Source: Eubacteriales bacterium
Lineage (GTDB): Bacteria; Bacillota; Clostridia; Oscillospirales; CAG-272
NCBI GenBank assembly: GCA_045632345.1
Contig: JAZQWM010000052.1
Span: 5,229 to 69,228, forward strand
DNA: 64,000 bases
Direction: 5' to 3'
Positions 953 to 56,252 of the stretch are shown piece after piece. The notes under the pieces are model-generated. The model saw nothing but the letters and a program-made list of their open reading frames with translations, was not told where the DNA came from and made no database searches. Each line of letters starts with the position of its first letter. Within the stretch, counting starts at the first letter, position 1. A program made the translations under genes and the position numbers.

Positions 953-1000
953 TACGGCTTTATAAAAAGGCTAATTTCCTAAGTACGAAAGGACAAATTT

Positions 1001-3306: not shown

Positions 3307-3307
3307 C

Positions 3308-7569: not shown

Positions 7570-7594
7570 GCTTCATATTGCGTCGTTGCTCCTC

Positions 7595-7677
7595 GTTGAC
7601 AACCTCAATGTACGCCAAGTACATTATCGCCTGTCAACTTCGGTGCGCCTAGCACTATTTTGCTTCTAAAACCGAAG
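7595..7677 (+). other. two stable hairpins in the argF 3' untranslated region
   Basis: GTTGACA..AATGTAC-GCCAA-GTACATT..TGTCAAC (7595-7638) and CTTCGGT...ACCGAAG (7638-7677). Both lie between the argF stop and the terminator. Confidence 0.3.
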
Positions 7678-7702
7678 GTGCACGTAAAATTAAGTATGAA
7701 TT

Positions 7703-7727
7703 AGCCACGCTTAGCGTGGCTTTTTTA
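7703..7727 (+). terminator. rho-independent terminator of the arg operon
   Basis: AGCCACGC-TTA-GCGTGGCT followed by TTTTTT. Confidence 0.8.
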
Positions 7728-7779
7728 TATTTGCTAACCTATGGTTGACAGATTTTATATAAAAGCAACCGCAGGTTAG

Positions 7780-7808
7780 TTGACATAAGCTATAATAAAT
7801 GCTAAAAT
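7780..7808 (+). promoter_or_regulatory. sigma-A type promoter
   Basis: TTGACA, 17 nt, TAAAAT with TG extended -10. Lies 27 nt upstream of the 7835 ORF. Confidence 0.55.
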
Positions 7809-7834
7809 AAAGAAAAAGCAAAGGAGTGTAGCAA

Positions 7835-8782
7835 ATGGAAATAAAATTTCGCAATAAAAAAATAGTTTACATATTATTATCAGTACCATGCTTGGCATTT
7901 TGTATTTTTTTAAATATGTTTTTTGTTCCTGCATTAATTTTTAGTATTGAAAGCCATAATTTACAAGAAATATTGTTTTGCTCACTAATGATTTTTATTT
8001 TCTTAATTGCTGGAGCTTTTGGCGTTTTTATTGCCTTACAAGCTATAAATCATCTTGTTCTTAAGGATGATTATATTGAAGGTTATTACAACGGAAAAAT
8101 CAAAATCTATTACAAGGATATAGAATGTATATCTACACATTTTGAACCAACGTTACCAAACTCTAATGAAATTTGCATTTTTTTGCATAACGGAAAAAGC
8201 TATCACATAACGAATGTAAAAAATATTGACGAGGTTTATAAAAAAGTATTTATAAGCTCTCCTAATTTAGCTAAAGATTATAATGATATAAAGGTTAGAA
8301 AAGAAAAAACATCAAAAGCATCAAAATCATATTATATATTGATTGCATCTCTTATAGTAATTATGTTTGTTGCTATATTTATTTGTGTCGGTTTAACAGG
8401 GGCAAGAGATATTCCTGAATTTAACGAAACCGATAAAATCATATTTACGTACTTTATAATCTTTGAAATTGTAACCGTTATAACATTGTTTTTAGTGGCA
8501 ATTTTAGGCGCAAAATATGTAAGAAATAAATGGGTATTTGATAATATGCTGCGCTATTTGAAAGCAAAGCAAGACAAAGATAAAAATCTTGAACAATATA
8601 CAGATAAATTATTATCTGTAAAATACAAATTTGACTATTCATTAAGACTTATTTTATACAGACAGGATGAAAAAGAATTGTTTGCGGTAGAATGGTATGT
8701 TGGAAACTCATGGCGAGGTTGCGTTGATGAATTTACAAATGATGATGAAACCGCAAAGAAATATTTTGAAAGTACACTTTGA
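7835..8782 (+). CDS. hypothetical multi-pass membrane protein
   Basis: 315 aa with several hydrophobic helices, AGGAG RBS, and its own promoter and terminator. Confidence 0.6.
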   Translation: MEIKFRNKKIVYILLSVPCLAFCIFLNMFFVPALIFSIESHNLQEILFCSLMIFIFLIAGAFGVFIALQAINHLVLKDDYIEGYYNGKIKIYYKDIECISTHFEPTLPNSNEICIFLHNGKSYHITNVKNIDEVYKKVFISSPNLAKDYNDIKVRKEKTSKASKSYYILIASLIVIMFVAIFICVGLTGARDIPEFNETDKIIFTYFIIFEIVTVITLFLVAILGAKYVRNKWVFDNMLRYLKAKQDKDKNLEQYTDKLLSVKYKFDYSLRLILYRQDEKELFAVEWYVGNSWRGCVDEFTNDDETAKKYFESTL

Positions 8783-8786
8783 TATA

Positions 8787-8822
8787 AAACCGCCAAAGCA
8801 TCTTACTTTGGCGGTTTTATTT
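8787..8822 (+). terminator. rho-independent terminator
   Basis: ACCGCCAAAG-CATCTTA-CTTTGGCGGT followed by a T-run. Confidence 0.8.
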
Positions 8823-8831
8823 ACCTTTTTC

Positions 8832-8860
8832 TTGAAATAATCATAATAATATGCTACAAT
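8832..8860 (+). promoter_or_regulatory. sigma-A type promoter of the GRE cluster
   Basis: TTGAAA, 17 nt, TACAAT with TG extended -10. Confidence 0.6.
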
Positions 8861-8887
8861 ATTTTTATGAAATAAAGGAGGTGCAAT

Positions 8888-40769: not shown

Positions 40770-40845
40770 TGGGATGTAGCCAAGCGGTAAGGCACCAGAC
40801 TTTGACTCTGGCATTTCGATGGTTCGAACCCATCCATCCCAGCCA
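40770..40845 (+). tRNA. tRNA-Gln (anticodon UUG), CCA encoded
   Basis: Cloverleaf read by eye. Acceptor TGGGATG/CATCCCA; anticodon arm CCAGA-CTTTGAC-TCTGG; T arm GATGG-TTCGAAC-CCATC; discriminator G + CCA. Confidence 0.9.
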
Positions 40846-41176: not shown

Positions 41177-42666
41177 TCAAATATACATTTCTATTTTGTA
41201 TCCGAAATCATTTGTTTTAGAAAAGCAAAAGCCCTGACTTTTGTCAGGACTTATACTACTATTTGGGGTGTTAAAATAAATCTTTAATGTATCATCAAAC
41301 ATTTCAATTTCTTTTATGAGTATTGATACAAATGCTTTAGCTTCTAATTTAAGAGTTTCTTTAAAGTATTCTCTTATATCGCTTTCTGTAAGTGCTATTT
41401 CTACCTTTGCATTTTCAATCAGAAGCTCTTTTTCTATATCTTCTAATTTGTTTTCAAGCTCGTGTAATCTTTTGTTAGTGGTATTTGAAATTATACCGTT
41501 TTCAATTGCTTTCATAATATTGTCAAGTGATTTTTCAATTTGCTTCTTTTCATTTAAAAGCATTGATAATACAGCATTTTCTCTTGAATTGCTTTCTTGT
41601 GCTTTCAATATGCTATCAACAATTAAATTCATAATTTCAGGCTTGTTTAATTCTGTTTCCAAGATTGTAAGAATAAGCGTTTCAAAATCATTTTTCTTAA
41701 CTATTGACTTTGTGCAGCCATTTGCTCTTTTTCTGCCAAAGCATTTATAGTAATGACAGGTTTTGCCAGACCTTGCTGTGCCTGTTTCAGCTGTAACTGT
41801 ACTACCACAGTAGCCACATTTTAATTTATGACGGAGTAAATAGTCAATCTTTTCACTTTTTGTTCCGTATTTATTTGCTACGATTTTCTTATGTACTCTA
41901 TCAAATATATTTTGAGGTACAATTCTTGGGTACATATCGGTAAATACTTCGTTTTTGAATCTGTATATACCTGCGTATTTTTCATTTTTAAGCATATTAT
42001 AAACGGTGTTTCTTAGAAATTCCTTGCCTTTGTAATATACACCTCTTTCTGTTAAGACTTTGATTATATCTTTTACAGCTACGTCGTATGAATATTGCTC
42101 ATAAATGTATCGTACAATTTCGGCTTCTTCTTCATTTATGACAACTTTTTTATTTACAATTTTGTAGCCATAAAGCAGATTTCCACCTGTAAAATTGCCC
42201 TTTAATCTTGTTTCATTCATACCACGCTTCACTTTTTGTGAAAGTTCAGCAGAGTAATACTCAGCATATCCTTCAAACATTGATTCCATAATGATAGCTT
42301 CAGGTGTATCAGGTAAATATTCTGTTGCTGATTTCAATCTTACACCATTATCTTTTAATGTTTTCTTATGAATTGCTGTTTCGTATTTGTTTCTTGAAAA
42401 TCGGTCAAATTTGTAAACTAATACATAGTCCCAATTTCCGTTTGCACTGTCTTTTAACATTTGCTGAAATGCAGGGCGATTGTCATTTGTCCTGTCATAG
42501 CTCTGTCAATGTATGTATTAACTATTACTATGTTATTGTTTTTAGCATAGTCAGTACATACTCTTAACTGTCCGTCAATTGACTGCTCAGTTTGATTTTC
42601 ACTTGAATAACGAGCATAAATTACAGCTGTTTTCAACTGATTTGATTGTGATTTTTTCTTTTCCAT
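41177..42666 (-). pseudogene. large serine recombinase disrupted by a 1-nt frameshift
   Basis: N-terminal fragment (AVIYARYSSENQ...YIDRAMTG) and C-terminal ORF (NDNRPAFQQMLKD..., zinc ribbon CGYCG...CHYYKC, coiled coil) are in different frames. They meet near 42486-42492. Confidence 0.85.
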
Positions 42667-43191: not shown

Positions 43192-43488
43192 ATGAAAAGT
43201 ATTGAAGAAATACGAAAGGAATTGCGTGGAATTCAGCATTATTACAGGAATAAAGACACGTTTGATAGCTCTATTGCACTTTTAGGAAAACCGTCATTTT
43301 ATGACACTACGGAAATGTACGAAAGGTATATTGTAAATGCTCCTAAACGGTTGCAAGATGTTTACGAGGACTTATACAGACAAGGCAAAGCACAAAAGAT
43401 AGTAGCTATTGAATGGCACGTAACCGAGAAATATATACAGATACTAAACAAAAGGCTTATACTGTATTTTCAAAACGTTTTAGAGTGA
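43192..43488 (+). CDS. small sigma-70 region-4-like / DUF1492-like element regulator
   Basis: 98 aa from MKSIEE with GGTGAGGA RBS. C-terminal HTH-like KIVAIEWHVTEKYIQILNKRL. Assignment is from memory. Confidence 0.45.
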   Translation: MKSIEEIRKELRGIQHYYRNKDTFDSSIALLGKPSFYDTTEMYERYIVNAPKRLQDVYEDLYRQGKAQKIVAIEWHVTEKYIQILNKRLILYFQNVLE

Positions 43489-43496
43489 TATTTATA

Positions 43497-43828
43497 TCAA
43501 GACAAGCACACGTCTAAAAACGCAACACCTCGTTTTATTACTGATTACCCCAACTAAAAATGGGTTCGCCTGAGCAAAAAAGAAAACTCTCCTTTCGGAG
43601 AGCTTAAAAATATACAAACTATACGAATAAGGCGTTAGCGAGAAAGTGGGTGTTTTCGCAAGCGGCTTAGCGCGAAACCCCACTTCGCTCGCCTTCGTAT
43701 TTGTTTTTTAACTCGTGGGAGCGTTTTTGACGTGAGCTTTTAGTTTGTCAGTTTGCTTTGTTTTTTGTAGGGCGTGTGCTTGTCTGCCGAGCGAAGCGAG
43801 GCACTTGTTCAAGACAAGCACACGCCCT
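43497..43828. repeat. 16-nt perfect direct repeat plus inverted copy forming a 16-bp stem
   Basis: TCAAGACAAGCACACG at 43497-43512 and 43809-43824. AGGGCGTGTGCTTGTC (43769-84) pairs with GACAAGCACACGCCCT (43813-28). Confidence 0.7.
43570..43602 (-). terminator. minus-strand rho-independent terminator about 265 nt downstream of the XRE-TPR gene
   Basis: Minus strand reads CTCTCC-GAAA-GGAGAG followed by TTTTCTTTTTTG. Confidence 0.6.
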
Positions 43829-43865
43829 GTTTACACGTTTCACACAAACATTGACTTAATGTTTT

Positions 43866-44999
43866 CTAATCATTACTCTTATATTTAGCATATTTTTCAA
43901 GTTTTTGCAAAATTTCTTGAAATTCAGGTGTGTTATTTACAAAAGTAAAGCACTTATCACTCATTCCATCTATTGATGTAAGACAGGTGTTTCTTGGATT
44001 GCTTGTAGTTACATATTCTCGTTTAAAATCAAGTTTATCTACAAAAAGAGAGGTATGCGGTGAATCTTGCAATGTATTAAACATAATTGAATAATCTGCC
44101 ATTTTATTAAGATTTTCTAAGGTCTTTTCTTCGTTTTCAAGTTTCGCATATTCTCTTGCTATCCAAGAATGCAGCACGGACATTTTTACACAAAAGAAAC
44201 CATAGTCCTCCTTGTAGAAAACTATTTTTATAATATTAGTACAATCTTCAAGAATTTTAATTTTTTCTTCTATTGATGTATTTGCCTGTCTTGTAGCTCT
44301 ATTCATCAAGCTTTCGATAAAAAGGTCAAGATATGCAAAGGTATTTTGTTGGCGTTGCTTTTCACCTTCGTCACCCTTCAAAATTATGCCTAAAAGTTGC
44401 TCTCTGCTTGTAACCATAGTTCCTGACATATTAGCATATTCTTTTGCTTTTTCTATATCTTTCTTGCGAAAATAAGTAAAACAAAGGGTTTGTATTGCAC
44501 TTGTTCTTGAATTTATATCTGTGCTTGACAACAAGGATTCTGCTATATTTATCAGCAAAGGAAATTTTTCCTGTTTTTGCTTTTCATCAAATCCTTGTGT
44601 GCAACGTTCATCAAGCATATACATATAATAAACCTTGACTGTTTCATTGTTTGGAAACTCTGAATATGCCTTTTCCCAAAGCTCATATGCTTCCTGACAT
44701 TTTCCAACCATTAGAAATTCGTGGCTTTCTTTTTTGTATTTTTCGATTTTTTCTTGTATTCGTTCTTCTTGCAGTCCCAATAAATTATCAACTGTTGTGT
44801 CAAAAAACAATGCTATTTTAGGCAACAAGGTTATATCGGGATATCCTTCGCCTCTTTCCCATTTTCCTATCGATTGAGCAGAAATATATAAATGCTTTGC
44901 AAGAGCCTCTTGTGTTATTCCTTTTTCTATGCGTAATTTTTTAAGCATATCCTTTAATGTGATTTCCATTTTGTTCTCCTTTGAGATATTATTTGACAA
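43866..44999 (-). CDS. XRE-HTH + TPR-like regulator (RRNPP-like architecture)
   Basis: 377 aa. N-terminal HTH (ITQEALAKHLYISAQSIGKWERGEGYPDITLLPKIA) and a C-terminal helical-repeat region. Confidence 0.75.
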   Translation of the reverse strand: MSNNISKENKMEITLKDMLKKLRIEKGITQEALAKHLYISAQSIGKWERGEGYPDITLLPKIALFFDTTVDNLLGLQEERIQEKIEKYKKESHEFLMVGKCQEAYELWEKAYSEFPNNETVKVYYMYMLDERCTQGFDEKQKQEKFPLLINIAESLLSSTDINSRTSAIQTLCFTYFRKKDIEKAKEYANMSGTMVTSREQLLGIILKGDEGEKQRQQNTFAYLDLFIESLMNRATRQANTSIEEKIKILEDCTNIIKIVFYKEDYGFFCVKMSVLHSWIAREYAKLENEEKTLENLNKMADYSIMFNTLQDSPHTSLFVDKLDFKREYVTTSNPRNTCLTSIDGMSDKCFTFVNNTPEFQEILQKLEKYAKYKSND

Positions 45000-45054
45000 G
45001 CGCTTATCTACTTTTATTATAATTCACATTTTACACATTTTCAAGAACTGTTAG

Positions 45055-45082
45055 GTTGTATTTTAGTTGTATTTTACAACCG
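45055..45082. promoter_or_regulatory. candidate operator in the divergent intergenic region
   Basis: Perfect tandem 11-mer GTTGTATTTTA x2 (45056-66, 45067-77) bracketed by GGTTG...CAACC. Confidence 0.4.
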
Positions 45083-45194
45083 AATATATATGATGATAGT
45101 AATTAAACATACTAAAAGAAGTAATTAAATTCTAAAATTATGGCTATAATTAAAGTAATGATAGCCTTCTCCGTAATTTTTTTACGGAAAAGTG

Positions 45195-45223
45195 TTGAAT
45201 TTGCTTTACAATCGTGTTATAAT
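45195..45223 (+). promoter_or_regulatory. strong sigma-A type promoter of the ATPase/RloB-like operon
   Basis: TTGAAT, 17 nt, TATAAT with TG extended -10. Confidence 0.65.
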
Positions 45224-45260
45224 GTCAATGAAAATCTATAAAAATCGTGGAGGAACTGTA

Positions 45261-46397
45261 ATGATTAGAAAATTTGAAGTCAAGAATTATAAGAATTTTA
45301 AAGATACTTTAAGTATTGATTTTACAAATGTTCACGATTATCAATATAACGAATATTGTGTAAAAAATGGTCTCATTAACAAAATGATAATTTACGGCAA
45401 AAATGCTGTAGGAAAGAGTAATTTAGGTATCGCCCTATATGATATCGCTATGGATGTTCACCTCTCGAGAAATCCATACAACTATAAAAACGATAGAATG
45501 CTTTTTAAAAATGCAGATGCAGAAGATGAAGAATTAGTAGAGTTTTATTATTCTTTTCAATTTGATGATGATATTGTTGATTATAGTTATAAGAAAAAGG
45601 ACGTTACAGATATTGTAAGCGAATCATTGCACATAAATGATGAATTGATTTTCTCTTATAATACAATAACTGGCGAACAGGATTTTTCAAACACTATAAA
45701 AATCAATGCAAGTGATTTGAATTGGAACGATTTTATTGAAATTTCTGATGCTTCAGGGCCAGATTTTATAGAGTCGACCAAGCCCTCTGCATTGAGATAT
45801 ATTATCTACAATACTATTCAAAAAGAATCCTCTCTTATCACAAAATTATCTCAGTTCATAAAAGGAATGCGTTTCACTCCTTCACTTAATTCAATTTCGC
45901 CAAGACTTTTATTAAATGAATATTTCACGGATGAAGAAAGCTTGTTAAAATTTGAAAAATACCTCAACAATTATGGAGTAATGTGTAAACTCAAAATGAT
46001 AGAGGGATTGGATGGAAAAAAAGACCTTTATTTTGATTATAAAAAGCCTTTATTGTTTAGTAGTAATCTATCAAGTGGAACTATTGCATTGACAAGATTT
46101 TACATTCAATACTTAAGCAGAGTAAAACCAACATTTGTTTTTATGGACGAGTTTGATGCTTTTTATCATTTTGAATTATCCGAAAAAATTATTTCATTGC
46201 TGGAAAATGAATTTGATTGTCAAGTAATATTAACCTCTCATAATACGAATTTATTAAGCAATTCAATTATGCGACCAGACTGTTTTATGATTTTGAGCAA
46301 TGGAAAACTCACACCGATATGCGAAGCCACCAACAGAGAATTGCGTCAAGGACACAATCTTGAAAAATTGTACAAAAACGGTGAATTCGATGAGTAA
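45261..46397 (+). CDS. ABC/SMC-type (AAA_15/21-like) ATPase, AbiLi/OLD-ATPase-like
   Basis: Start MIRKFEVKNYKNF with GGAGG RBS. Walker A GKNAVGKSN, signature-like LSSGT, Walker B FVFMDEFD, TSHN. Confidence 0.8.
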   Translation: MIRKFEVKNYKNFKDTLSIDFTNVHDYQYNEYCVKNGLINKMIIYGKNAVGKSNLGIALYDIAMDVHLSRNPYNYKNDRMLFKNADAEDEELVEFYYSFQFDDDIVDYSYKKKDVTDIVSESLHINDELIFSYNTITGEQDFSNTIKINASDLNWNDFIEISDASGPDFIESTKPSALRYIIYNTIQKESSLITKLSQFIKGMRFTPSLNSISPRLLLNEYFTDEESLLKFEKYLNNYGVMCKLKMIEGLDGKKDLYFDYKKPLLFSSNLSSGTIALTRFYIQYLSRVKPTFVFMDEFDAFYHFELSEKIISLLENEFDCQVILTSHNTNLLSNSIMRPDCFMILSNGKLTPICEATNRELRQGHNLEKLYKNGEFDE

Positions 46398-47148
46398 TGA
46401 TGGACGTAACATTCTTTTAATTGTTGAAGGTGAAAAAGCTGAGGTGAGATTGTTCGAAAAAATCTTATCTCTTTTCCCTGAAATAAAGTTAAATCCCAAC
46501 AACATACTCGTTTATAACACTAATATTTGGGTTTTGAACAAGAGTTTGGAATATGCTTTTGGCACAGATTGGTATAATTCCAAAGATATTGAATTTCTTG
46601 AATTTATAGAATCTAGATTTCCAGAGATTAAAGGAAAGAAAATAACTGACACATTTTTAGTGTTTGATTATGAAAGGCAGGATTTTAGATTCTGTGGTGA
46701 CAAATTGGAAAAGATGTGTCAATTTTTCAACGACTCGGTGGAAAATGGGAAGTTGTACATCAATTATCCAATGATTGAGTCATACAAACATTTCAAATGC
46801 TCCGAGTTTCCTGATAACGATTATAGAGACAGAATTTGCAAAGTAGAAGACATAGCTGTATATAAAAATACAGTTGGTCAAGAAACTAAACATCAAGATA
46901 TAAGAAAATTTTCACGAGCTATGTTTCAACAAATTACAATTCATAATATCAAAAAATCATCGTTCATTGTGTCAAACAAATATGATTTGAATGATTCCGA
47001 AATATTGGATTATTGCGAATACATAGATTTACAAGAAATTGCTAAAATGCAAAACGTACACTCCTCGGGAGCAGAACAGTTCATATATGTGTTGTGTACG
47101 TGTCTATTTTTTATTAGTGACTATAATAGGAATCTACTATATGATTAA
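46390..47148 (+). CDS. RloB-like / TOPRIM-like partner protein (AbiLii-like)
   Basis: ATGAGTAA start/stop overlap with the ATPase. N-terminus NILLIVEGEKAE, later LVFDYERQD and YINYPMIESY. Assignment is from memory of the RloB signature. Confidence 0.55.
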   Translation: MSNDGRNILLIVEGEKAEVRLFEKILSLFPEIKLNPNNILVYNTNIWVLNKSLEYAFGTDWYNSKDIEFLEFIESRFPEIKGKKITDTFLVFDYERQDFRFCGDKLEKMCQFFNDSVENGKLYINYPMIESYKHFKCSEFPDNDYRDRICKVEDIAVYKNTVGQETKHQDIRKFSRAMFQQITIHNIKKSSFIVSNKYDLNDSEILDYCEYIDLQEIAKMQNVHSSGAEQFIYVLCTCLFFISDYNRNLLYD

Positions 47149-47154
47149 TGTTGT

Positions 47155-47216
47155 GGTTCAAATTACAAACAAAATGCTCAGCCAAAACAAGAGGACACCA
47201 AATCGGTGTCCTTTTT
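47155..47216 (+). repeat. cassette-junction element, copy 1
   Basis: GGTTCAA (47155-61), N14, GCTCAGCCA (47176-84), hairpin GGACACC-AAATC-GGTGTCC (47193-47211), then TTTTT. Confidence 0.7.
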
Positions 47217-47227
47217 GTTTTGTTTTG

Positions 47228-47400
47228 GCTGGGATGGCGCTGGCTCGACCACTTTATGTTTGCTTTGCAAACATAAATATGGTTCGTTCTTTTGCCCTAA
47301 GGCGTTGTCTGCTTGCAAGGATAAGCCGTGGGCAAAAGCCTCGCCCATGGCGAGAACCCATCCGCATAGTTACTTTTTAAAAAGACTCCATCCATTCCAG
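47228..47400 (+). other. GC-rich structured patch containing tRNA-Gln-like fragments
   Basis: 10-bp hairpin 47254-47276; CTTTTGCCC...GGGCAAAAG; CTCGCC-CATG-GCGAG. GAACCCATCC (47354-63) is identical to tRNA 40826-35. CCATCCATTCCAG (47388-400) matches tRNA 40830-42 at 12/13. Confidence 0.5.
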
Positions 47401-47482
47401 ATGATGTTAGCACTATACTGTATTGAGAGCATTCGCGTAAAAAACAGTCAACCAATGGTTAACAAAATATATCAACTATCTC

Positions 47483-47511
47483 TTTACATACCACTGAGCT
47501 CGTGCTATAAT
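47483..47511 (+). promoter_or_regulatory. sigma-A type promoter
   Basis: TTTACA, 17 nt, TATAAT with TG extended -10. The palindrome AACCAATGGTT (47450-60) lies upstream. Confidence 0.6.
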
Positions 47512-47552
47512 ATGATTAGTTCCGGAGCAATAATTTCTTGGAGGTGTTTTGA

Positions 47553-48143
47553 ATGTCAAATTTAAAAATAGGCGATAAAATCAGAACAAAAAGAAGAGAG
47601 CGCAATATGACTCAAGAAGAGCTTGCCAACAAGCTTTTTGTAAGCAAGGCAGCAGTAAGCAAGTGGGAGAATGAGGAAAGCTATCCTGATATAACTATGC
47701 TTCCTCAAATAGCACAGATATTTCATGTAACAATGGATGAGCTTTTCGATTACACTCTTGAAGAGAAGCCGTTAAGTATCGTTAACGAATATCATTTCGG
47801 GTTCTCACTTGATGTAGTAGATAGACAAATTTTAAATTATGGTATCGCTGAAGAATGCAAAGCTTACAAAGTCGGTGACACTTGGGAGATATGCGTTGAT
47901 TTTGTATCTAATGAGGAAAATATCCCGTATATATTGCAAAAATACATTAAGCCGGGTGTACTTATTGACGGTTACAGTGTTAGACGAGCAGACGGAAAAG
48001 TTATAGATGATGATAAGCCGAATAAACATTATATATGCAGTGAAAAGGTTTGGGAATACAATCTTTCCAATAAAAAATATATGTGGTCTATGTTAAGAGA
48101 ACAAATAGCTATGGGATTGATTGAAGGAGAGGAAGGCTTCTAA
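47553..48143 (+). CDS. XRE-HTH regulator with unknown C-terminal domain
   Basis: 196 aa. HTH (MTQEELANKLFVSKAAVSKWENEESYPDITMLPQIA) followed by about 130 aa I do not recognise. Confidence 0.75.
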   Translation: MSNLKIGDKIRTKRRERNMTQEELANKLFVSKAAVSKWENEESYPDITMLPQIAQIFHVTMDELFDYTLEEKPLSIVNEYHFGFSLDVVDRQILNYGIAEECKAYKVGDTWEICVDFVSNEENIPYILQKYIKPGVLIDGYSVRRADGKVIDDDKPNKHYICSEKVWEYNLSNKKYMWSMLREQIAMGLIEGEEGF

Positions 48144-48154
48144 CAATAAAGCAG

Positions 48155-48178
48155 AAAGACAGGGCTTCCCCTGTCTTT
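48155..48178. terminator. bidirectional terminator between convergent regulator genes
   Basis: AAAGACAGGG-CTTC-CCCTGTCTTT. Confidence 0.7.
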
Positions 48179-48180
48179 TC

Positions 48181-49341
48181 TTATTTCTCTGCAAGCTTTA
48201 ATGCTTTTTCATAAAGAACTACAAATCTTTCGTCTGTGCGAACATCGTCAAACCAATGCCAATGTGTCATAGCCCTTCTTATGTCGCTTTTTATTCCAAA
48301 AAAAAGCCATAAATATGGATTCCAAGCCTTTGTTCCGTCCTGTAAATGAATGTACACAACATTTGAGCTATCGTTTTTATTTATCTTTGCATTTTCAAAC
48401 AGCTCAGGTTTTCCTACATCCATAAGCTTTCCATCGGGGATTTCAATCCATTTTTCATATAATTCAAATGATTTTTCAAGATATTCAAAGCCTTCGTTGA
48501 GTTCGTTTGCTCCAATCAATGCACCACCTGTTTTTAAACAGAGTTCTGCATAAGCACCGAGCCAAGCTTCAGGTATCGTTCCGTCAAGTGAAATAGTTTC
48601 AAGCACTCGCATTTTGAATTTTGAAAGCTCGGCAGTTCTCATAGGACTTTCAAAAACAATTCCAAATCTGTCTTTTTCTCTTACATCATGATAACGCATA
48701 CAATCTCTGCCCAAAAAATGCATTAAGCTAAGCAAATTATTTGCATTTGATTGATTTTGAAATTTTTCGTTTTCGCACCTTTGATAGTAACGTTCCTCTA
48801 ATTTTTCGTTTTCGCAATCAGCAAATATTCGTGGGCTTCTGTATTTCCAATTCTCAAATTCTTCATCTGGGCATACTATATTCATGTAATGAATCGCACT
48901 TTGCCTTATCCATTCGTTTGTACATTCTTCCATTATTTTTTCGCAAATATGCTTCAAAAGTGGATATTCCTTTTCCCAATAGTCCTTAATTTCTACTATT
49001 GAGCCACCTAAAATTTCCATAATCACAAAATTTTGTGGATATTTTTTGTGATACGCCTTAGCCAATGATAAGCGTTCTTTATAATTTACTTTTCCGTATT
49101 TTTCTAAAAAGCTTTCTATATCGTTTTTAACACTAACCTCGTCATTTCCGATAAGCTCATCAACAGTAATTCCCAAAAAGTTAGCAATAGACGGAAGCAA
49201 AGTTATATCGGGATAGCCACCTCTTTCCCAATTTGATACAGCTTGTGGTGAAACATATAAAGCCTTTGCTTATTCCTCTTGTGTTAAATCAAGACGCTTT
49301 CTTTCTCTTGAAATAACTTCTGAAATTTTCAATTCTACCAT
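48181..49341 (-). pseudogene. XRE-HTH + TPR-like regulator with an in-frame TAA in the HTH
   Basis: ATG at 49341 with GGAGG RBS gives MVELKISEVISRERKRLDLTQEE-TAA-AKALYVSPQAVSNWERGGYPDITLLPSIANFLG, in frame with the listed 48181..49200 ORF. The stop is at 49270-49272, where paralogues have Leu. Confidence 0.75.
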
Positions 49342-49478
49342 AATAAAATCCTCCTGTATGATTAGAGGGAGTGCACACCTTCTGTCATTATGATAACATT
49401 GTTTTGTGTGATAGTCAATAACTTTGCACTTGAGTTTCGCTCAAACAATGTTTGAATTTTACAAACAACAATTAAACA

Positions 49479-49504
49479 GCGAGTGCCGAAAAATCAGCAC
49501 TCGC
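49479..49504 (-). terminator. minus-strand terminator
   Basis: GCGAGTGC...GCACTCGC hairpin. A T-rich tract follows on the minus strand. Confidence 0.6.
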
Positions 49505-49512
49505 CATTTGTT

Positions 49513-50625
49513 TTATTCAAAATTAAAACATTGCTTGACTTTTGAAACCAAAGCCTTAAATCTTTCTGTTCCCCTTATAGGATTTAGCCATTCCCAACCC
49601 TCAGATTCAGTTAAAATCTCATATAATTGTTCAAATCGCCACGGGTCAGTATGATTAGGCGATAAAAAAATCAAATCAAGAGTTGGACAATTGAACTTCA
49701 ATTCCGTACCTGTAGGAATATTCCAATATTTAATGTATAAATCAATTGATTTTTCAAGAGCTTTAAAGCCTTCTTCTATTTCGCCTGACCCAACGAGTCC
49801 TCCTGCTAATCGCAAATATGCCCAAGCCCTTTCAGCAATCCAAGCATCTATTTCCTCGGACGGGTCTCTCAAAGCATCAATTATTTTTAAAATAATCTTC
49901 TGTCCTTCTGCACGAGATTTTGCATTTTTGTATGTTTTTGCATCTCTTTTACAAAAATCTCTACTAAAAATATCTATCAACCCATCTACTATATTCCATT
50001 GAATTTGCTCGTTATATTTTTCAATCTCATTACGATATTCATATCGTGAGGTAATAATGCTGGGTAAAGAAGTATAAAATCTATCACTTACATATTGTGT
50101 CCAATTTTCAAGTTTATCCTCATCCTCTACTCTAATCATTATTCTTATACAGCCTAAGCGATATTCTTTATCTTTAGAGTTATCGTTTTCAATAACAAAT
50201 AAAGAATATTTTCTTAACGCTTCAATATTTTTCTTGGCACAATCAAAGCCCCTCCTATGATATAGACTACATAATTTCCATTGAAAGTACACATCCTTTG
50301 GAAAGCTTTTAATTGCTTCCGTAAGAGTTTTTTCAAACTTTTTGAAATCTTCGTCACTATATATATTTTCCTGTTCTTTGATTGTTTTCAAATATTCCTG
50401 TCGCTTATATTCTATTGTTGTTTCGTCTGTGCCAAAAAGCACATCAGTAGTTACACCAAAATAATTACCAATCAACGGAATAAGCTCCACATCAGGATAT
50501 GCAAGGTCATTTTCCCATCTGCTAACCGATTGATAGGTTACATTCAAAACCTTTGCTAATTCCTCTTGCGTGATATTCTTTTCCTTTCGTAATCTCTTTA
50601 TTACTTGTGAAATAGGCAATCTCAT
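49513..50625 (-). CDS. XRE-HTH + TPR-like regulator (paralogue)
   Basis: 370 aa. HTH (ITQEELAKVLNVTYQSVSRWENDLAYPDVELIPLIG) and a helical-repeat C-terminus similar to the 48181 and 43866 proteins. Confidence 0.75.
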   Translation of the reverse strand: MRLPISQVIKRLRKEKNITQEELAKVLNVTYQSVSRWENDLAYPDVELIPLIGNYFGVTTDVLFGTDETTIEYKRQEYLKTIKEQENIYSDEDFKKFEKTLTEAIKSFPKDVYFQWKLCSLYHRRGFDCAKKNIEALRKYSLFVIENDNSKDKEYRLGCIRIMIRVEDEDKLENWTQYVSDRFYTSLPSIITSRYEYRNEIEKYNEQIQWNIVDGLIDIFSRDFCKRDAKTYKNAKSRAEGQKIILKIIDALRDPSEEIDAWIAERAWAYLRLAGGLVGSGEIEEGFKALEKSIDLYIKYWNIPTGTELKFNCPTLDLIFLSPNHTDPWRFEQLYEILTESEGWEWLNPIRGTERFKALVSKVKQCFNFE

Positions 50626-50766
50626 ATTCTCACCTCAATATTAAATTCAAAGTGCACCTTGTACCTTTATTGTAATGCAAAACTACTGATATTTCAATAA
50701 CTTATCACGCATAATCAACTAAATTGTTAAGTGAGTTTTTCGCAAATTGATAATACTGTGGTATTC

Positions 50767-50834
50767 GGTTCAATTTTCGCACATCCCGTTCAGCCAGAAA
50801 AAAGACCAACTCACTTGTGGGTTGGTCTTTTTTT
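50767..50834 (+). repeat. cassette-junction element, copy 2
   Basis: GGTTCAA (50767-73), N14, GTTCAGCCA (50788-96), hairpin AGACCAAC...GTTGGTCT (50803-28), then a T-run. No same-strand gene lies upstream. Confidence 0.7.
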
Positions 50835-50872
50835 GTTATATTCGCCTGCGGCGAGTTCTATGCACGACCTGC

Positions 50873-51008
50873 GTGATATTGCCTTCGGCAGTGATATGCG
50901 CTTCGCGCGTTGGAAGTTACAAGGGCGAATATAATATCACTGTGAGCAAATCGAACAATATCACTTTTTCGCAGAAAAAATATCACTCTGCTTTAGCAGA
51001 ATATCACT
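50873..51008. repeat. iteron-like heptamer cluster (6 copies of ATATCAC/GTGATAT)
   Basis: GTGATAT at 50873 and 50891. AATATCACT at 50933, 50957, 50979 and 51000 (core starts spaced 24, 22 and 21 nt). The last copy abuts the -35 box. Confidence 0.75.
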
Positions 51009-51014
51009 TATTTC

Positions 51015-51043
51015 TTTACAAGCGATTTAATTTATGATATACT
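51015..51043 (+). promoter_or_regulatory. sigma-A type promoter
   Basis: TTTACA, 17 nt, TATACT with TG extended -10. Confidence 0.55.
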
Positions 51044-51061
51044 TTTTACGAGGTGATAACA

Positions 51062-51424
51062 ATGTCAAACAGCATTTTAAGAGATAAATCCAAAGATTTT
51101 GCAAAGCAAATTGTTATTCTTTGCAGAAATATTAAAGCTAATCACAAAGAATCGGTTTTGACCAATCAACTCTTGCGTTCGGGAACATCCATCGGTGCAA
51201 ACATACACGAGGCACAATACGCACAAGGTAAAAAGGATTTTATATCTAAATTGGAAATCGCACAAAAGGAATGCAACGAAACGGAATATTGGCTTGAATT
51301 ACTGTTTGAAACAGGCTATATGACAGAGGCAGAATACAAGCCAATTCAAAGCGAGTGCGGTGCTATTCGCAGAATGTTAATTTCCTCTATAAATACCACT
51401 AAAGCAAATTTACAACAGGAGTGA
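51062..51424 (+). CDS. four-helix-bundle protein (23S rRNA intervening-sequence protein family)
   Basis: 120 aa from MSNSIL with GAGGTG RBS. Pattern LLRSGTSIGANIHEAQ...FISKLEIAQKECNETEYWLELL. Confidence 0.7.
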   Translation: MSNSILRDKSKDFAKQIVILCRNIKANHKESVLTNQLLRSGTSIGANIHEAQYAQGKKDFISKLEIAQKECNETEYWLELLFETGYMTEAEYKPIQSECGAIRRMLISSINTTKANLQQE

Positions 51425-51430
51425 AATGGT

Positions 51431-51928
51431 ATGGCTATTTGGTACAAAGTTGAACATTCAAAATTGGGAATAAAAAACTTTATGGAATGCAATTGGCATT
51501 TCCACGATTTTAGTATTGAACGAGTTAGCCTTTTATCTAATGAAAATACAGTGGAAATTTTTTTAAGGTATGATGAATTGGAAGGCAGTGTTATTATTCG
51601 TTTTGTTAATGTTCATTCTATGAATGTAAATTTTAAGGTGGAGTTCGGTTCTTCTGAGGGCATTATGGGTAGTGTTTTACTTTTGACCGACAACAGTCGC
51701 TTATTATGGATTGCCGACGACTCTTGGGGCAATCAAAGTGCCCAACATATTGACGAGCTTAAAAATGAATTTTCATGGGTAGAAGCAGAAAATATCATAT
51801 GGGCAGTAACGGACGAAACTGGCAAACCAGCTGAAATGCCAGCTTCTAAAATCGACCAAGTTTGGAACATCTATGGCAAAACAGAATATCACCATTTCGA
51901 TCTTATGCCATATAATGAAGTAGAATAA
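51431..51928 (+). CDS. hypothetical protein
   Basis: 165 aa, coupled 6 nt after the four-helix-bundle gene. No family recognised. Confidence 0.55.
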   Translation: MAIWYKVEHSKLGIKNFMECNWHFHDFSIERVSLLSNENTVEIFLRYDELEGSVIIRFVNVHSMNVNFKVEFGSSEGIMGSVLLLTDNSRLLWIADDSWGNQSAQHIDELKNEFSWVEAENIIWAVTDETGKPAEMPASKIDQVWNIYGKTEYHHFDLMPYNEVE

Positions 51929-52043
51929 TATTTTAAATATTGCGATAAGTAAGGTTAAAATCTCACAAAAATTCTGACTTAAAATCAAATCTTAACTGTT
52001 ATAAATTCTTATGCCGCAAGGCTTTAAGTCAATTTCACCTTGC

Positions 52044-52118
52044 GGTTCAACTGAGGCCTTAAATGTTCAGCCAAGAAAGACATAATCCGAACCGTCGGGT
52101 TAGGTCTTTCTCTTTTTT
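52044..52118 (+). repeat. cassette-junction element, copy 3
   Basis: GGTTCAA (52044-50), N14, GTTCAGCCA (52065-73), hairpin AGAAAGAC...GTCTTTCT (52074-52111), then a T-run. Confidence 0.7.
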
Positions 52119-52276
52119 GCTTGGATGTATGTTCTCACGACCCTTCCTCTTACTTCGAAAGAACATGGTTCGTAATCAAGCCCAAGTCATCTGGGAGGAC
52201 GCTCACAAGGTACTGAGTGCAGATCATTTTCCAACGGAAAATGTATCCGTTCTCTTTTTATAAAAACCAAATCTAC

Positions 52277-52305
52277 TTGAACTTTTATTAAAATTATGAT
52301 ACAAT
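52277..52305 (+). promoter_or_regulatory. sigma-A type promoter
   Basis: TTGAAC, 17 nt, TACAAT with TG extended -10. Confidence 0.6.
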
Positions 52306-52329
52306 CATATCAAGAAAGGTGGTGCACTT

Positions 52330-53169
52330 ATGGGATGTTGGGGAATGGGACTTACCCAAAGCGATGAATACTGCGAAATATACGAGCGATTTATGGAAGA
52401 ATACGATGAGGGTAAACCTCTTGGTGATATTAAAAACGATATTATAGAAGAATACTTAGAAGAATTTGATGAACACGACGGAATCTTTCACGATGTATAT
52501 TTTGCTATCGGTAAAGCGGAATGGATGTGCGGCGGAATATCCGACGAAATTTTGGAAAAAATAAAGCATATCATCTTGAATGGTGATAATATTGCTTTTT
52601 ACCGTGAACTTGAAGCCACAGAAAGCGATTTAAAATTGCGGCAAAAGAATCTTGAAAAATTTTTAAACTCACTTTCTATACCAAGAGGAAAGACAAAAAA
52701 ACGCAAAATACCAACTGAAAAATACATGCCTGTAATAAAACCTAAACTTCCGCCCTTCAAATGTGGCGACATATTTTCGTATGAAGTAAACGGAAAACAT
52801 CGTCTGTTATGCTTTGTATATAGAGGTAAATATTATTCCACATATGCCGCCTATTGCTATGCGTGGCAAAAACTATACGATACTATTCCGCCATTAGAGG
52901 ATTTAGCTAAAGAGTTAGTTATGCCTCTTGGATATTTTACCGTAGATACCTTCCCAAATTTTAATAAACTCACCTACCACGGAAATAATCTGAATTTAAA
53001 AAAACTATACGTTTTCTTTCCAAAAGTTTTTTGTGAGCATTGGAAACCTGCAAGATATGCTATGGCGTTGGAGAAACATTTATCTGAGCATTATCCAACA
53101 GAACATTGCATAAAACTTAGCGAGTGCTTTGAAAAAATAGAAGAAATTAAAAAAAGAATAATAGGCTGA
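52330..53169 (+). CDS. DUF4259-like N-terminal domain protein (polymorphic-toxin immunity-like)
   Basis: 279 aa with MGCWGMGLTQSDEY N-terminus. C-terminal GDIFSYEVNGKHRLLCFVY resembles Imm26-type cores. Assignment is from memory. Confidence 0.45.
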   Translation: MGCWGMGLTQSDEYCEIYERFMEEYDEGKPLGDIKNDIIEEYLEEFDEHDGIFHDVYFAIGKAEWMCGGISDEILEKIKHIILNGDNIAFYRELEATESDLKLRQKNLEKFLNSLSIPRGKTKKRKIPTEKYMPVIKPKLPPFKCGDIFSYEVNGKHRLLCFVYRGKYYSTYAAYCYAWQKLYDTIPPLEDLAKELVMPLGYFTVDTFPNFNKLTYHGNNLNLKKLYVFFPKVFCEHWKPARYAMALEKHLSEHYPTEHCIKLSECFEKIEEIKKRIIG

Positions 53170-53257
53170 CTTACGTAAGGACTCACTAAACGGGTACAAA
53201 TGTCATAAAAAAAGAATGCATTGACATAAAACTATAATCAATAGAAAGAAAAAAACA

Positions 53258-54031
53258 ATGAACAAAACCTACAACCGATATAAAAAAGAACTTTTAGCAA
53301 ATGGTTTTACAGAAGCCAAGAAAAAGGACGGACATTTTTACCGTCAAGCAGCAAGTCAAACCGCATTTGTAATAAATTTAGAAAATAATGAATTTTGTGT
53401 TGACATCTTATATGGCTTTGCTTCTACCGCCTGTATGTTGGGTGATGAAGATTATTTTTCAAATTATGGCTCTAATAAAGATGACTGCCACATAAGAAAA
53501 ATAATATCCGTGTCTAAAGAAAACGAAGAAGCAGCGAAACAAATAATCAAAGACCTTTATAACAAATATAAATCATTCACAAAGGACGAAATTCTTTCTC
53601 TAAAAAAGGAGTGCCAAAAGGAATTTTTAAATAATTTTGCTAAAGTCTTAAAGCCCCTTGGCTTTAAAAAGAAAGGGACTAAATGGTCAAGGGAATTGGA
53701 AAACGGATATTTTCTGTTTTTGGATGCTCAAAAATCAGCATTTTCTGATGAATACTACTTTAATGTAATAATAAAATTACTCAACGAAAGTAGCGTAGGA
53801 TGTTTTTATACAAGAGTAGTAATGGGTGAGCAAAATATCTATAATTGGCAGTTAATGTCCGATAAGCAAATTGAAACTCTCGTTAATTACACCTTGGATA
53901 ATTACATAACACCAATTTTAAATACACCCCTGCAAGACTTAGGAAAGAATAAATCCATTTGTAATAGTTGCTATTGCGAAAGAAACAAATGTGCAAATTG
54001 TTGGCTTGAACACAACCATTGGCAAAATTAA
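53258..54031 (+). CDS. DUF4304-like protein (immunity-like)
   Basis: 257 aa. LKPLGFKKKGTKWSRELENGYFLFLDAQKS...YYFNV matches the DUF4304 pattern as I remember it. Confidence 0.45.
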   Translation: MNKTYNRYKKELLANGFTEAKKKDGHFYRQAASQTAFVINLENNEFCVDILYGFASTACMLGDEDYFSNYGSNKDDCHIRKIISVSKENEEAAKQIIKDLYNKYKSFTKDEILSLKKECQKEFLNNFAKVLKPLGFKKKGTKWSRELENGYFLFLDAQKSAFSDEYYFNVIIKLLNESSVGCFYTRVVMGEQNIYNWQLMSDKQIETLVNYTLDNYITPILNTPLQDLGKNKSICNSCYCERNKCANCWLEHNHWQN

Positions 54032-54073
54032 AAAGCAAAATAATATTAAGCGCATTTATAAAGGAGAGCCGAT

Positions 54074-55165
54074 ATGTTTGAATTAACCAACGAACAAAGA
54101 AAGTGCTTCGCTTTACCGCCTGTGCTTGAGGCTTGGAAAAGAATAGAGGTGAAAAAGGGACCGTACGATACTTGTAATACCTATGCGTATATTGACGGAC
54201 AACAAATTATGAAGGTTATTCAAGTGTGTGATACGAAAGGTCAAGAGTTTTACCGTGAATATTCAGTCAATCAATTAATCTCAAATGACGGAACGAAGCT
54301 TCTTCCTAAAACTTCAAAAGGGAAACCGCAAAATTTTATTGCATCATATCTTGAAAAGAAAAAACCGATTGGAATGTCAATTGATTTTAAATCCAATTAT
54401 ATCGCCATAGTTAATAATGATAGTGAACAATGCTATTATCGTTCTGTATATTGCGGTGAAAGAATAGAAACACTTAGCGATTTTAAATTGTGGATAGCAA
54501 ATTGGTGTAAAACCACAGGAGAAAAGGAATTAAAAGAAATAATTGAATTTTCCAAGCGTACAAAAAGTCATCAAAAATTTAATGAAGGTGATTTTTTTAG
54601 ATACAGAATAGACCGTTCTCTTTATGGCTATGGCAGAATTCTTTTGGATTTTGAAAAAATGCGCAAGGAAGGCGTAAAGTTTTGGGATATATTTATGGGC
54701 AAGCCACTATGTGTTGCAGTATATCATATTGCTACCACAGATTCAAATTTAAAGCCCGAACAGCTTTTGGGAAAAAAGATGCTTCCATCACAAATGATAA
54801 TGGATAATATATTCTATTACGGTGAATGTGAAATTGTTGGAAATATTCCCATTGAAGAGAACGAAAAGGATTATCCGATACACTACGGAAGAAGTATATC
54901 ATTAATAGACCCAAATAGTATTAAATACCAATGCGGAAAAACCTATGCTTCAAAATTATTAAAAAAAGAATTAGGCGATTTTAAAAATAATGGCATAGGT
55001 TGGGACTTAAATGTGAAGTTACCTATTTTGTTAGAATGTATCAAGCAAAATTCTAACGATCCATATTGGCAAATGATTCATCCTTATTATTCAAATAAGG
55101 ATTTGCGAAATCCAAAATTCAAGAAAGAGCTCGAACAAATTAAAAAGCAAATGGGAGTAAAATAG
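54074..55165 (+). CDS. Imm26-like immunity-family protein
   Basis: 363 aa with GDFFRYRIDRSLYGYGRILLDF core. Assignment is from memory. Confidence 0.4.
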   Translation: MFELTNEQRKCFALPPVLEAWKRIEVKKGPYDTCNTYAYIDGQQIMKVIQVCDTKGQEFYREYSVNQLISNDGTKLLPKTSKGKPQNFIASYLEKKKPIGMSIDFKSNYIAIVNNDSEQCYYRSVYCGERIETLSDFKLWIANWCKTTGEKELKEIIEFSKRTKSHQKFNEGDFFRYRIDRSLYGYGRILLDFEKMRKEGVKFWDIFMGKPLCVAVYHIATTDSNLKPEQLLGKKMLPSQMIMDNIFYYGECEIVGNIPIEENEKDYPIHYGRSISLIDPNSIKYQCGKTYASKLLKKELGDFKNNGIGWDLNVKLPILLECIKQNSNDPYWQMIHPYYSNKDLRNPKFKKELEQIKKQMGVK

Positions 55166-55179
55166 AAAGGAAAACAATT

Positions 55180-55497
55180 ATGGAAAAATACGCATGGAAA
55201 GCAAAAATAGTTGACGGAGCATTAGAGGAATACATAAAACGCCACGATGCAATATGGGAAGAAATGAAGGAAGTCTTATCAAATGCAGGTATAGTAAACT
55301 ACACAATTTGGAATGTAGGCAACGAACTTTTTGGCTATTACGAATGTGAAAAGGGCATTGAATACGCCACCAAGGTACAAAGAGAAAGCCCCGTAGTTGA
55401 TAAATGGAACGAATATATGAAGGACATTCTTATAATGGAATTAGACCCTGAAACAGGCGCACAACCTCAACTCAAAAAGGTATTTTCATTCAAATAA
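55180..55497 (+). CDS. rhaM: L-rhamnose mutarotase family (DUF718) protein
   Basis: 105 aa with the YIKRHDAIWEEM...NYTIW...LFGYYE pattern. Confidence 0.7.
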   Translation: MEKYAWKAKIVDGALEEYIKRHDAIWEEMKEVLSNAGIVNYTIWNVGNELFGYYECEKGIEYATKVQRESPVVDKWNEYMKDILIMELDPETGAQPQLKKVFSFK

Positions 55498-55501
55498 AAA
55501 C

Positions 55502-55529
55502 AAAGACCTGACAAAGATGTCAGGTCTTT
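55502..55529 (+). terminator. terminator hairpin ending the same-strand gene array
   Basis: AAAGACCTGACA-AAGA-TGTCAGGTCTTT. Confidence 0.6.
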
Positions 55530-55607
55530 AAAATATTTATTTTTATGATTGATTTTAAATACAATTTATGTTAAAATTACAATATATATGCAAAAGGAAT
55601 GTGAAAA

Positions 55608-56252
55608 ATGAAAATAATAGATTTAACACACGATATTACAGAAAATATGCCTGTATATCCCAATAGTGATAAACCAAAGTTTAAAACCATCTTCACCTAC
55701 GAAAAAGATGGCTTTAGAGAAACCTTGCTTACCTTAGGCAGCCATACAGGCACACACATTGATGCCCCTGCCCATATAATAAACGGAAAGCTAACCCTTG
55801 ATGAATTTGACGTTTCTCAATTTATTGGCAAAGCACTAGTCATTGATTGCCGTAGCTTAAAGGACGGCGAGCTAATCACAGCTGATTATATTTTGAAGTA
55901 TGGCGAAAAATTAAATCAAGCAGAATTTCTGCTCTTTAATTTAGGCTGGGACAAAAGATGGGGAACTAACGAATATTTTGGCGATTTCCCTTGCCTAAAT
56001 AGTGAAGCCATTGACGTAATAGCAAACGGTAACTATAAGGGCGTTGGCTTTGACGTTATCAGCATTGACGGAGTAGGCAAGCCACTCAAGGTCCACACAG
56101 AGCTGTTTTCTAAAAAATCACTAATCAACGTAGAAAATCTCAAAAATCTTGAACTTTGCGGTAGCGAAATTTTCACGTTCGTTTGCTTACCGTTAAAATT
56201 AACAAACGCAGACGGCTCTCCAACAAGAGCCATAGCAATAATAGAAGAGTAA
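55608..56252 (+). CDS. cyclase family protein (kynurenine formamidase-like)
   Basis: 214 aa with HTGTHIDAPAH metal motif. Confidence 0.8.
   Translation: MKIIDLTHDITENMPVYPNSDKPKFKTIFTYEKDGFRETLLTLGSHTGTHIDAPAHIINGKLTLDEFDVSQFIGKALVIDCRSLKDGELITADYILKYGEKLNQAEFLLFNLGWDKRWGTNEYFGDFPCLNSEAIDVIANGNYKGVGFDVISIDGVGKPLKVHTELFSKKSLINVENLKNLELCGSEIFTFVCLPLKLTNADGSPTRAIAIIEE

Follow-up and report, generated by a model that had tools for sequence, protein, structure and literature searches.

A two-gene operon of the phage defence candidate family PDC-M12 on a mobile element of an uncultured gut Clostridia genome

Systems that combine an ATP-binding cassette (ABC) ATPase with a Toprim-type nuclease form a group to which OLD, Gabija, PARIS and RloAB belong. 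AbiL of Lactococcus lactis, which consists of AbiLi and AbiLii and was reportedly described by Deng et al. in 1999, has an ABC ATPase gene and, after it in the same two-gene operon, a gene for a RloB-type putative Toprim nuclease; the RloB family (PF13707) is also found in Campylobacter, where RloAB resides in type I restriction-modification (RM) loci. AbiL is counted among the ABC ATPase plus Toprim systems (PMC11464382; PMC13064643), and its mode of action is still open according to a review (PMC13064643). Here we describe a two-gene operon of likewise an ABC ATPase gene (gene A) followed by a gene for a putative RloB/Toprim-type protein (gene B), located at positions 45166-47225 on the plus strand of a 64,000-nucleotide (nt) stretch of contig JAZQWM010000052.1 (the window, to which all coordinates refer). 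The pair almost certainly belongs to the PDC-M12 family, of which it is an ordinary further member. It thus adds an intact example of this catalogued candidate family, which here travels on a mobile element in the genome of an uncultured gut member of the Clostridia, and opens no new kind of system. The main value of the analysis lies in the set of putative catalytic residues, the co-evolution of the two genes, and the homologues on Escherichia coli plasmids.

Family assignment and operon layout

PDC stands for 'phage defence candidate', a collection of 145 systems, all described as untested, that were derived from genes embedded in BREX, DISARM and type I RM loci (Payne et al. 2024, bioRxiv 10.1101/2024.01.29.577857). 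PDC-M12, multi-gene candidate no. 12, is listed in the supplementary table of that study as cassette CAS_00072 (FAM_01143>>FAM_01648, count 272; 10.1101/2024.01.29.577857). In comparisons with the PADLOC hidden Markov models (HMMs), gene A matches PDC-M12A (PDLC04426) at an E-value of 6.6e-96 over residues 1-378, covering model positions 1-369 of 369, and gene B matches PDC-M12B (PDLC04430) at 2.4e-41 over residues 1-248 (model positions 6-240 of 251). Four further PDC-M12B models also match gene B. The arrangement is that of PDC-M12 as well: A precedes B, directly adjacent and on the same strand, with an overlap of 8 nt. An original prediction, made from the DNA alone, had proposed an AbiL/OLD-like defence candidate built from an ABC ATPase and a RloB/Toprim-like partner. 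This was essentially right, given an AbiLi match of gene A at 5.5e-38 and profile alignments of B with RloB and AbiLii at 69-91% (hhalign; see below). The option that the partner might be an unclassified variant can be dropped, since the pair is already catalogued as PDC-M12 in PADLOC-DB v2.

The predicted features of the operon could all be confirmed, with positions that differ by one base at most from those first proposed. They are listed below; L102 denotes a metagenome contig that is about 90% identical, of which positions 1-10560 were compared with window positions 43648-56108.

45166-45192, plus strand: inverted repeat with core CCGTAA-N5-TTACGG, abutting the -35 box (-12.5 kcal/mol, z = -4.3 versus shuffles)
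45195-45223, plus strand: sigma-70-type promoter TTGAAT-17-TATAAT with an extended -10 TG (TGtTATAAT), 10 of 12 consensus matches
45249-45254, plus strand: ribosome-binding site GGAGGA, read from the sequence, 6 nt before the gene A ATG and conserved in L102
45261-46397, plus strand: gene A, PDC-M12A, 378 amino acids (aa), AbiLi-like ABC ATPase (HMM matches, motifs, AlphaFold2 fold)
46390-47148, plus strand: gene B, PDC-M12B, 252 aa, putative RloB/Toprim-type protein (HMM match, conserved residues, AlphaFold2, hhalign)
46390-46397, plus strand: 8-nt overlap of the A stop and B start, ATGAGTAA, read from the sequence
47189-47215 (47189-47225 in the broader delimitation), plus strand: intrinsic terminator, an 11-bp stem followed by a T-run (sequence scan)

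The open reading frame (ORF) listed by the program for gene A opens at a GTG at 45192. We assign the start to the ATG at 45261, because GGAGGA lies 6 nt upstream of it and homologues start at the same residue.

Genes A and B behave as a single co-evolving, translationally coupled unit. In all 80 loci, taken from species-representative genomes, B is directly preceded by an A homologue on the same strand; the hosts are mostly Bacillota, with a few Chloroflexota, Coriobacteriia and Negativicutes and one betaproteobacterium. The 8-nt overlap, which had been put forward as a sign of translational coupling, recurs in 57 of 79 related loci (any overlap in 74 of 79) and indicates that A and B are indeed coupled in this way. 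Moreover, the codons for the invariant C-terminal Gly-Glu-Phe of A, GGTGAATT (46374-46392), occupy the expected Shine-Dalgarno position of B: GGTGA(A/G)TT, which codes for Gly-Glu-Phe, lies 8-9 nt before the B start and is in the same place in 57 of the 79 loci. These codons may therefore be doubly constrained, by the protein sequence of A and by the Shine-Dalgarno sequence of B. A Mantel test of the pairwise distances gave a strong correlation between A and B, with r at 0.81 and none of 999 permutations as high. Long forms of A (382-389 aa) are always paired with long forms of B (309-343 aa). Such co-evolution is as expected for two proteins that work as a complex. The loci with long forms are the following.

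Long-form loci (pair at about 6800-9000 in most): L024, L032, L038, L052, L060, L062, L065, L070, L075, L077, L079

In the long-form B proteins, which come mostly from Lachnospiraceae, the conserved Y-K motif is followed by a helical insert of about 80 residues.

The ATPase and its partner protein

All four motifs proposed for the ATPase could be located in the 378-aa protein: Walker A GKNAVGKS (46-53, within GKNAVGKSN), the signature LSSGT (270-274), Walker B FVFMDEFD (292-299) and the H-loop TSHN (325-328). The 45 gene A homologues that were aligned all share the Gly and Lys of Walker A, the Ser-Gly-Thr of the signature, the Asp-Glu of Walker B and the His of the H-loop. Gene A matches Pfam AAA_21 above the cut-off (1.1e-17), the PADLOC AbiLi model (PDLC02335; 5.5e-38, model positions 49-282 of 326 only) and the PADLOC AriA model (2.7e-18), with further matches to the MADS3, PtuA, HEC-01 and GajA models. 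A sequence search of the PDB with gene A found no relative. Its AlphaFold2 model (predicted local distance difference test, pLDDT, 90) matches PtuA from retron-Septu complexes as well as Rad50 and SMC heads in a Foldseek search of the PDB (E-values 7e-10 to 3e-7, probability 1.0, template modelling (TM) scores 0.40-0.58). Taken together, the family matches, invariant motifs and fold matches show that the product of gene A is a small, complete ABC ATPase head of Rad50/SMC type and falls in the AAA_15/21 group, which is associated with defence. Compared to the ATPases of PARIS, OLD and GajA, it is much smaller and lacks long coiled-coil arms.

The fold matches of A also include a RecF model (9a5q_B). 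RecF, an ABC ATPase, and RecR, a Toprim protein, follow the same domain logic as A and B, and the element that carries the pair has a serine recombinase. One might thus consider a RecF/RecR-like accessory for repair or recombination of the integrative element, instead of an immunity or toxin module. We regard this as very improbable. The distribution is sporadic: gene B is missing from 60 related genomes, among them those of 36 species of the same genus, and was found in 9 of the 299 other species of the class. In addition, the recombinase nearby is a broken gene that is not conserved beside the pair, and the best relatives of the ATPase are the defence ATPases AbiLi, AriA, PtuA, MADS3 and HEC-01.

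The 252-aa product of gene B contains both motifs that were originally pointed out, IVEGEKAE (residues 11-18, within ILLIVEGEKAE) and FDYERQD (92-98). Pfam and NCBIfam scans of B found no family, the gene B homologues listed have no Pfam domains, and PDB sequence searches with gene B and with a B profile found no solved relative. With 1032 representatives in a 50%-clustered library, the relatives of B form a large family. An alignment of 38 homologues, down to 37% identity, has E13 (in V-E-G), D93, G120, Y126-P127-M128, E130, H134, Y158-K159, N186, K189, Q221 and T237 as invariant residues, and E95 and D98 as near-invariant ones. The AlphaFold2 model of B (pLDDT 94.4, predicted TM score 0.91) has a four-strand alpha/beta core (strands 7-12, 39-43, 85-93 and 120-126), with E13 after strand 1 and an acidic D-x-E..D cluster (D93, E95 and D98) after strand 3. 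From about residue 140 the protein is all-helical, and this family-specific C-terminal half carries the invariant Y158, K159, N186, K189, Q221 and T237. Toprim domains, as reportedly defined by Aravind, Leipe and Koonin in 1998, have a four-strand alpha/beta core in which strand 1 ends in a conserved Glu and strand 3 in an acidic DxD-type motif. Judged by its predicted strands and its alignment, B has a Glu and an acidic motif at these two places. The second acidic motif is D-x-E in the window protein and its close relatives, and D-Y-D in the homologue from E. coli plasmids. We propose E13, D93, E95, E130 and H134 as the putative catalytic residues of B.

For profile comparisons, an RloB set was extracted as ORFs from the PF13707 genes of 22 out of 151 genomes of the same class, and an AbiLii set likewise from the AbiLii-model matches of 18 out of 301 genomes of the phylum. 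With hhalign, an alignment of 136 B sequences scores 91.2% against the RloB set (E-value 1e-6, 112 columns) and 90.8% against the AbiLii-like set (1.2e-6), compared to 1.1% (0.05) for the ATPase family as negative control; a second run, with 38 B sequences against 28 RloB sequences, gave 69.4% (4.3e-5). Three conserved motifs are aligned in the same order and on the same predicted strands, namely IVEGexxE with CEGxxTE, FDYExxD with VFDxD, and NYPMxExxxH with SNxxFELWxxLHF, the third of which thus reads NYPMxE..H in the window protein and SNxxFELW..LHF in AbiLii and RloB. RloB differs in that only the N-terminal 110-140 residues align and that the window protein stays under the Pfam threshold. 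A Foldseek search of viral predicted structures (BFVD) has a myovirus 'RloB-like protein' as the top match of B (E-value 1.4e-3, probability 1.0, TM scores 0.41/0.46; next match at 0.07), and PDC-M12B from Acinetobacter gives a sub-threshold match to Pfam RloB (0.0072). For RloB, HHpred indicates a relationship to OLD_TOPRIM (PMC10440598), and an AbiLii model superposes on the OLD nuclease 6NJV (PMC13064643). On our reading, these data suggest that B is a very distant relative of RloB and AbiLii with a Toprim-type active-site layout, and that a Toprim fold is likely.

Several results weigh against this assignment. Pfam RloB (gathering threshold 31.5 bits) gives no match to B at E-values up to 1, and the PADLOC AbiLii model (PDLC02337) matches B only at an E-value of 0.014 (14 bits), which is not significant, so that in comparison with AbiL the window has an ATPase matching the AbiLi model but a partner that is only a remote AbiLii homologue, with a helical C-terminal half of its own. 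The predicted structure, which had been suggested as a check for a TOPRIM fold, gives a divided answer: the best viral match is RloB-like, as described above, but no Toprim protein is among the 50 PDB matches listed, the best of which is RadA/Rad51 (E-value 0.05, TM score 0.22). A sequence search of the PDB with the RloB/AbiLii profile found no solved structure either; the link between B and a proven Toprim nuclease is therefore indirect, and the step from RloB to Toprim rests on the literature. In the window's own whole genome, a Pfam RloB search yielded no match. Pfam scans of B found neither DUF4435 nor Toprim_Old. The hhalign score of B against DUF4435 is 1%, from a set of three sequences with low power; since RloB itself reaches only 2.3% with the same set, this value is uninformative either way. 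Despite the weak RecA-like fold matches in the PDB, we do not take B for a RecA-like ATPase, since a P-loop is missing and the TM score is 0.22.

The same results bear on a rather improbable alternative, in which the effector would be the ATPase or an unlinked partner, and B, built on a Rossmann-like core, would have no catalytic activity and serve as an adaptor or regulator. The model of B has no significant PDB match and its top matches are RecA-like ATPase cores, B matches no family of the Pfam Toprim clan, and its second acidic motif in the window protein and close relatives is D-x-E and not the classical D-x-D. However, the alignment of 38 sequences has no variation at E13, D93, E130 and H134 and hardly any at E95 and D98, and the conserved residues of B align with those conserved in RloB and AbiLii. 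A metal-binding active site typically shows this kind of conservation, with charged residues kept where strands end, and D-Y-D does stand at the second motif of the homologue from E. coli plasmids.

Proposed function and carriage on plasmids

The most likely function of the operon, by analogy with its relatives, is that of an AbiL/PARIS-like abortive defence or toxin-antitoxin-like module. More specifically, we consider it fairly probable that PDC-M12 is a sister of AbiL within the ABC ATPase plus Toprim-type nuclease group and acts as an abortive defence by the following mechanism. A would bind B in a complex and hold the putative nuclease silent. A phage-derived cue, which could be a protein or else an aberrant nucleic acid, would be sensed by A and would release or activate B, which would then cut an essential nucleic acid (tRNA or DNA); cleavage would stop the infected cell and abort the infection. 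By the same toxin-antidote logic, the pair would also stabilise its own mobile element. PARIS, P2 Old and Gabija GajA share this logic of sensor ATPase and Toprim effector, and the phage-sensing release of a tRNase serves as the template for our proposal. In PARIS, AriA releases the AriB tRNase (PMC11464382), P2 Old acts as a tRNase too (10.64898/2026.07.10.737580), and in toxin-antitoxin pairs an AAA antitoxin neutralises a Toprim toxin that acts by blocking translation (PMC10440598). The window pair differs from these systems in that B has no match to DUF4435 or Toprim_Old and no fold match to AriB, OLD or GajA. If PDC-M12 is active, this compact member would extend the ATPase plus Toprim immune group of OLD, Gabija, PARIS and AbiL.

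A defence role has to be set against a number of observations. Trigger, substrate and complex formation are all taken by analogy from PARIS, P2 Old and the AAA/Toprim toxin-antitoxin pairs. Our literature search found the name PDC-M12 in no main text, and in contrast to AbiL, which has shown abortive-infection activity, no such activity is on record for PDC-M12. A tblastn search of 50,697 phage records with B gave no match. The original prediction had named a lack of defence-island association in other genomes as a refutation, and this association turned out to be sparse. Among the 145 nearest neighbours in the 79 loci there are few defence genes (GajA 2, type IV restriction endonuclease 2, PbeA 2, ResIII 3), and most neighbours are housekeeping or unrelated genes. 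Support from defence islands is therefore weak, which fits the statement of Payne et al. that PDC candidates show a lower association with other systems than enrichment-derived candidates (10.1101/2024.01.29.577857).

Plasmids offer a different perspective on the family. A relative is present in 14 plasmid records, of which nine are E. coli-group plasmids of 4.0-4.4 kb and ColE1/Rop-type that have the PDC-M12 pair as their sole sizeable cargo. The sizeable genes of pEcFELIX705.3, for example, are only an 'ATP-binding protein', a 'hypothetical protein' that overlaps it by 8 nt, and rop. The E. coli plasmid pair is archetypal PDC-M12, with E-values of 6.4e-176 for A and 8e-120 for B. In architecture, motifs, gene order and overlap, the archetypes from E. 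coli and Acinetobacter plasmids agree with the window pair, whereas the window pair represents a diverged Bacillota branch, as seen from the 2.4e-41 of its B protein and from the 27% identity between the E. coli plasmid B and the window B. One such pair is located as follows.

1412-2485 and 2478-3260, L104 (NZ_CP101918.1, whole 4404-bp plasmid): archetypal PDC-M12 pair

Given that close archetypes reside on 4-kb E. coli plasmids, the family is directly testable in a laboratory host.

Carriage as the sole cargo of such minimal plasmids would also fit a module that mainly serves addiction and stabilises the small mobile elements on which it travels, with B as toxin, A as antidote, and an anti-phage effect that is secondary or absent. 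On the Acinetobacter plasmid pZS-2 the pair lies beside two RelE/ParE toxin-antitoxin systems, which together with minimal-plasmid carriage supports a toxin-antidote logic. The window pair is itself carried on a serine-integrase element of about 6.5 kb at a tRNA-Gln gene, the association with other defence genes is weak, and AAA ATPase plus Toprim pairs act as toxin-antitoxin systems in toxicity-neutralisation assays (PMC10440598). Nevertheless, we think that addiction is unlikely to be the main role. Most of the 79 chromosomal loci have no adjoining recombinase or plasmid gene (recombinases make up 3 of the 145 neighbours), and the family was picked up from copies embedded in BREX, DISARM or type I RM loci (10.1101/2024.01.29.577857). 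Furthermore, toxin-antitoxin action and abortive defence are compatible, as PARIS shows both (PMC13064643).

One more reading is that PDC-M12 is a working immune family with its own biology and not a plain copy of AbiL. The helical half of B would then serve substrate recognition or ATPase docking as in no characterised Toprim effector, and the small, armless ATPase would sense a cue other than those of AriA, Old or GajA. B has no Pfam family or solved relative, and the pair occurs on minimal plasmids and in integrase cassettes of both Bacillota and Proteobacteria, which go with this idea; we hold it tentatively, as a minority possibility.

Control signals, mobility and neighbouring genes

The near-consensus promoter that had been predicted upstream of gene A is present and, in addition, has the TG extension; its 3' end lies 38 nt before the start codon of gene A. 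In the AT-rich window, promoter-like sites are common (25 found versus 14.4 expected). The promoter call therefore rests on position and on conservation in L102, where the -35 and -10 hexamers are identical. The upstream hairpin, first placed at 45172-45187, is real and extends over 45166-45192. Its core is conserved in L102, and it may be an operator. We ruled it out as a terminator, since a T-run is missing 3' of the repeat on both strands. An Rfam scan of 43400-47700 found no RNA family.

Other features around the operon are as follows.

40770-40845: tRNA-Gln, flanking the cassette region and adjoining the recombinase
41177-42666, minus strand: large serine recombinase (Resolvase, Recombinase, Zn_ribbon_recom), in two overlapping frames (42454-42666 and 41177-42460)
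45016-45044, minus strand (read 45044-45016): promoter TTGAAA-17-TATAAT of the XRE-TPR gene (sequence scan)
45055-45076: perfect tandem 11-mer, two copies of GTTGTATTTTA, directly upstream of the -35 box of the XRE-TPR promoter
47354-47400: patch repeating the 3' end of tRNA-Gln, on the far side of the cassette

The cassette thus lies between the tRNA-Gln gene with its broken serine recombinase, which was probably inactivated by a frameshift, and the patch that repeats the tRNA 3' end. Comparison with L102 delimits what is shared. The block common to both (45105-47362) comprises the promoter, A, B, the terminator and the junction, while L102 has an unrelated 306-aa gene of no family in place of the divergent XRE-TPR gene, has the att-like junction (window 47204-47362) in duplicate, and is without window 50796-55173. 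The operon and its own promoter therefore form the mobile unit, with the XRE-TPR gene and the 11-mer outside it, and the region is a hotspot built from exchangeable cassettes. The cassette is horizontally acquired and mobile.

The tandem 11-mer, initially placed at 45056-45077 (the other phase of the same repeat), is a real repeat but probably does not belong to the ATPase operon. A part in the control region of the operon is unlikely because the repeat lies outside the L102-shared block and adjoins the divergent XRE-TPR promoter; it is more probably a candidate binding site at the XRE-TPR regulator's own promoter. We also rejected a conserved third gene or regulator, given that the 145 neighbours share no common family (the largest family tally is 3) and that the XRE-TPR gene is replaced in L102. 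Two ORFs 3' of B (47039-47380 and 47206-47565) were rejected as genes, since they span the terminator and the att-like junction; a 174-aa L102 counterpart of the ORF 3' of B matches no family.

The window also contains three paralogues of about 340-377 aa (43866-44999, 48181-49200 and 49513-50625, all on the minus strand) and a 196-aa XRE protein (47553-48143, plus strand). PADLOC matches of the paralogues are confined to the helix-turn-helix part (HTH_VI, RmrA, capH), and no link to the ATPase operon was found. Two of the three combine a Pfam XRE helix-turn-helix match with a long C-terminal domain, and the paralogue at 48181-49200, without a Pfam match, has an N-terminus that resembles a cut-off helix-turn-helix.

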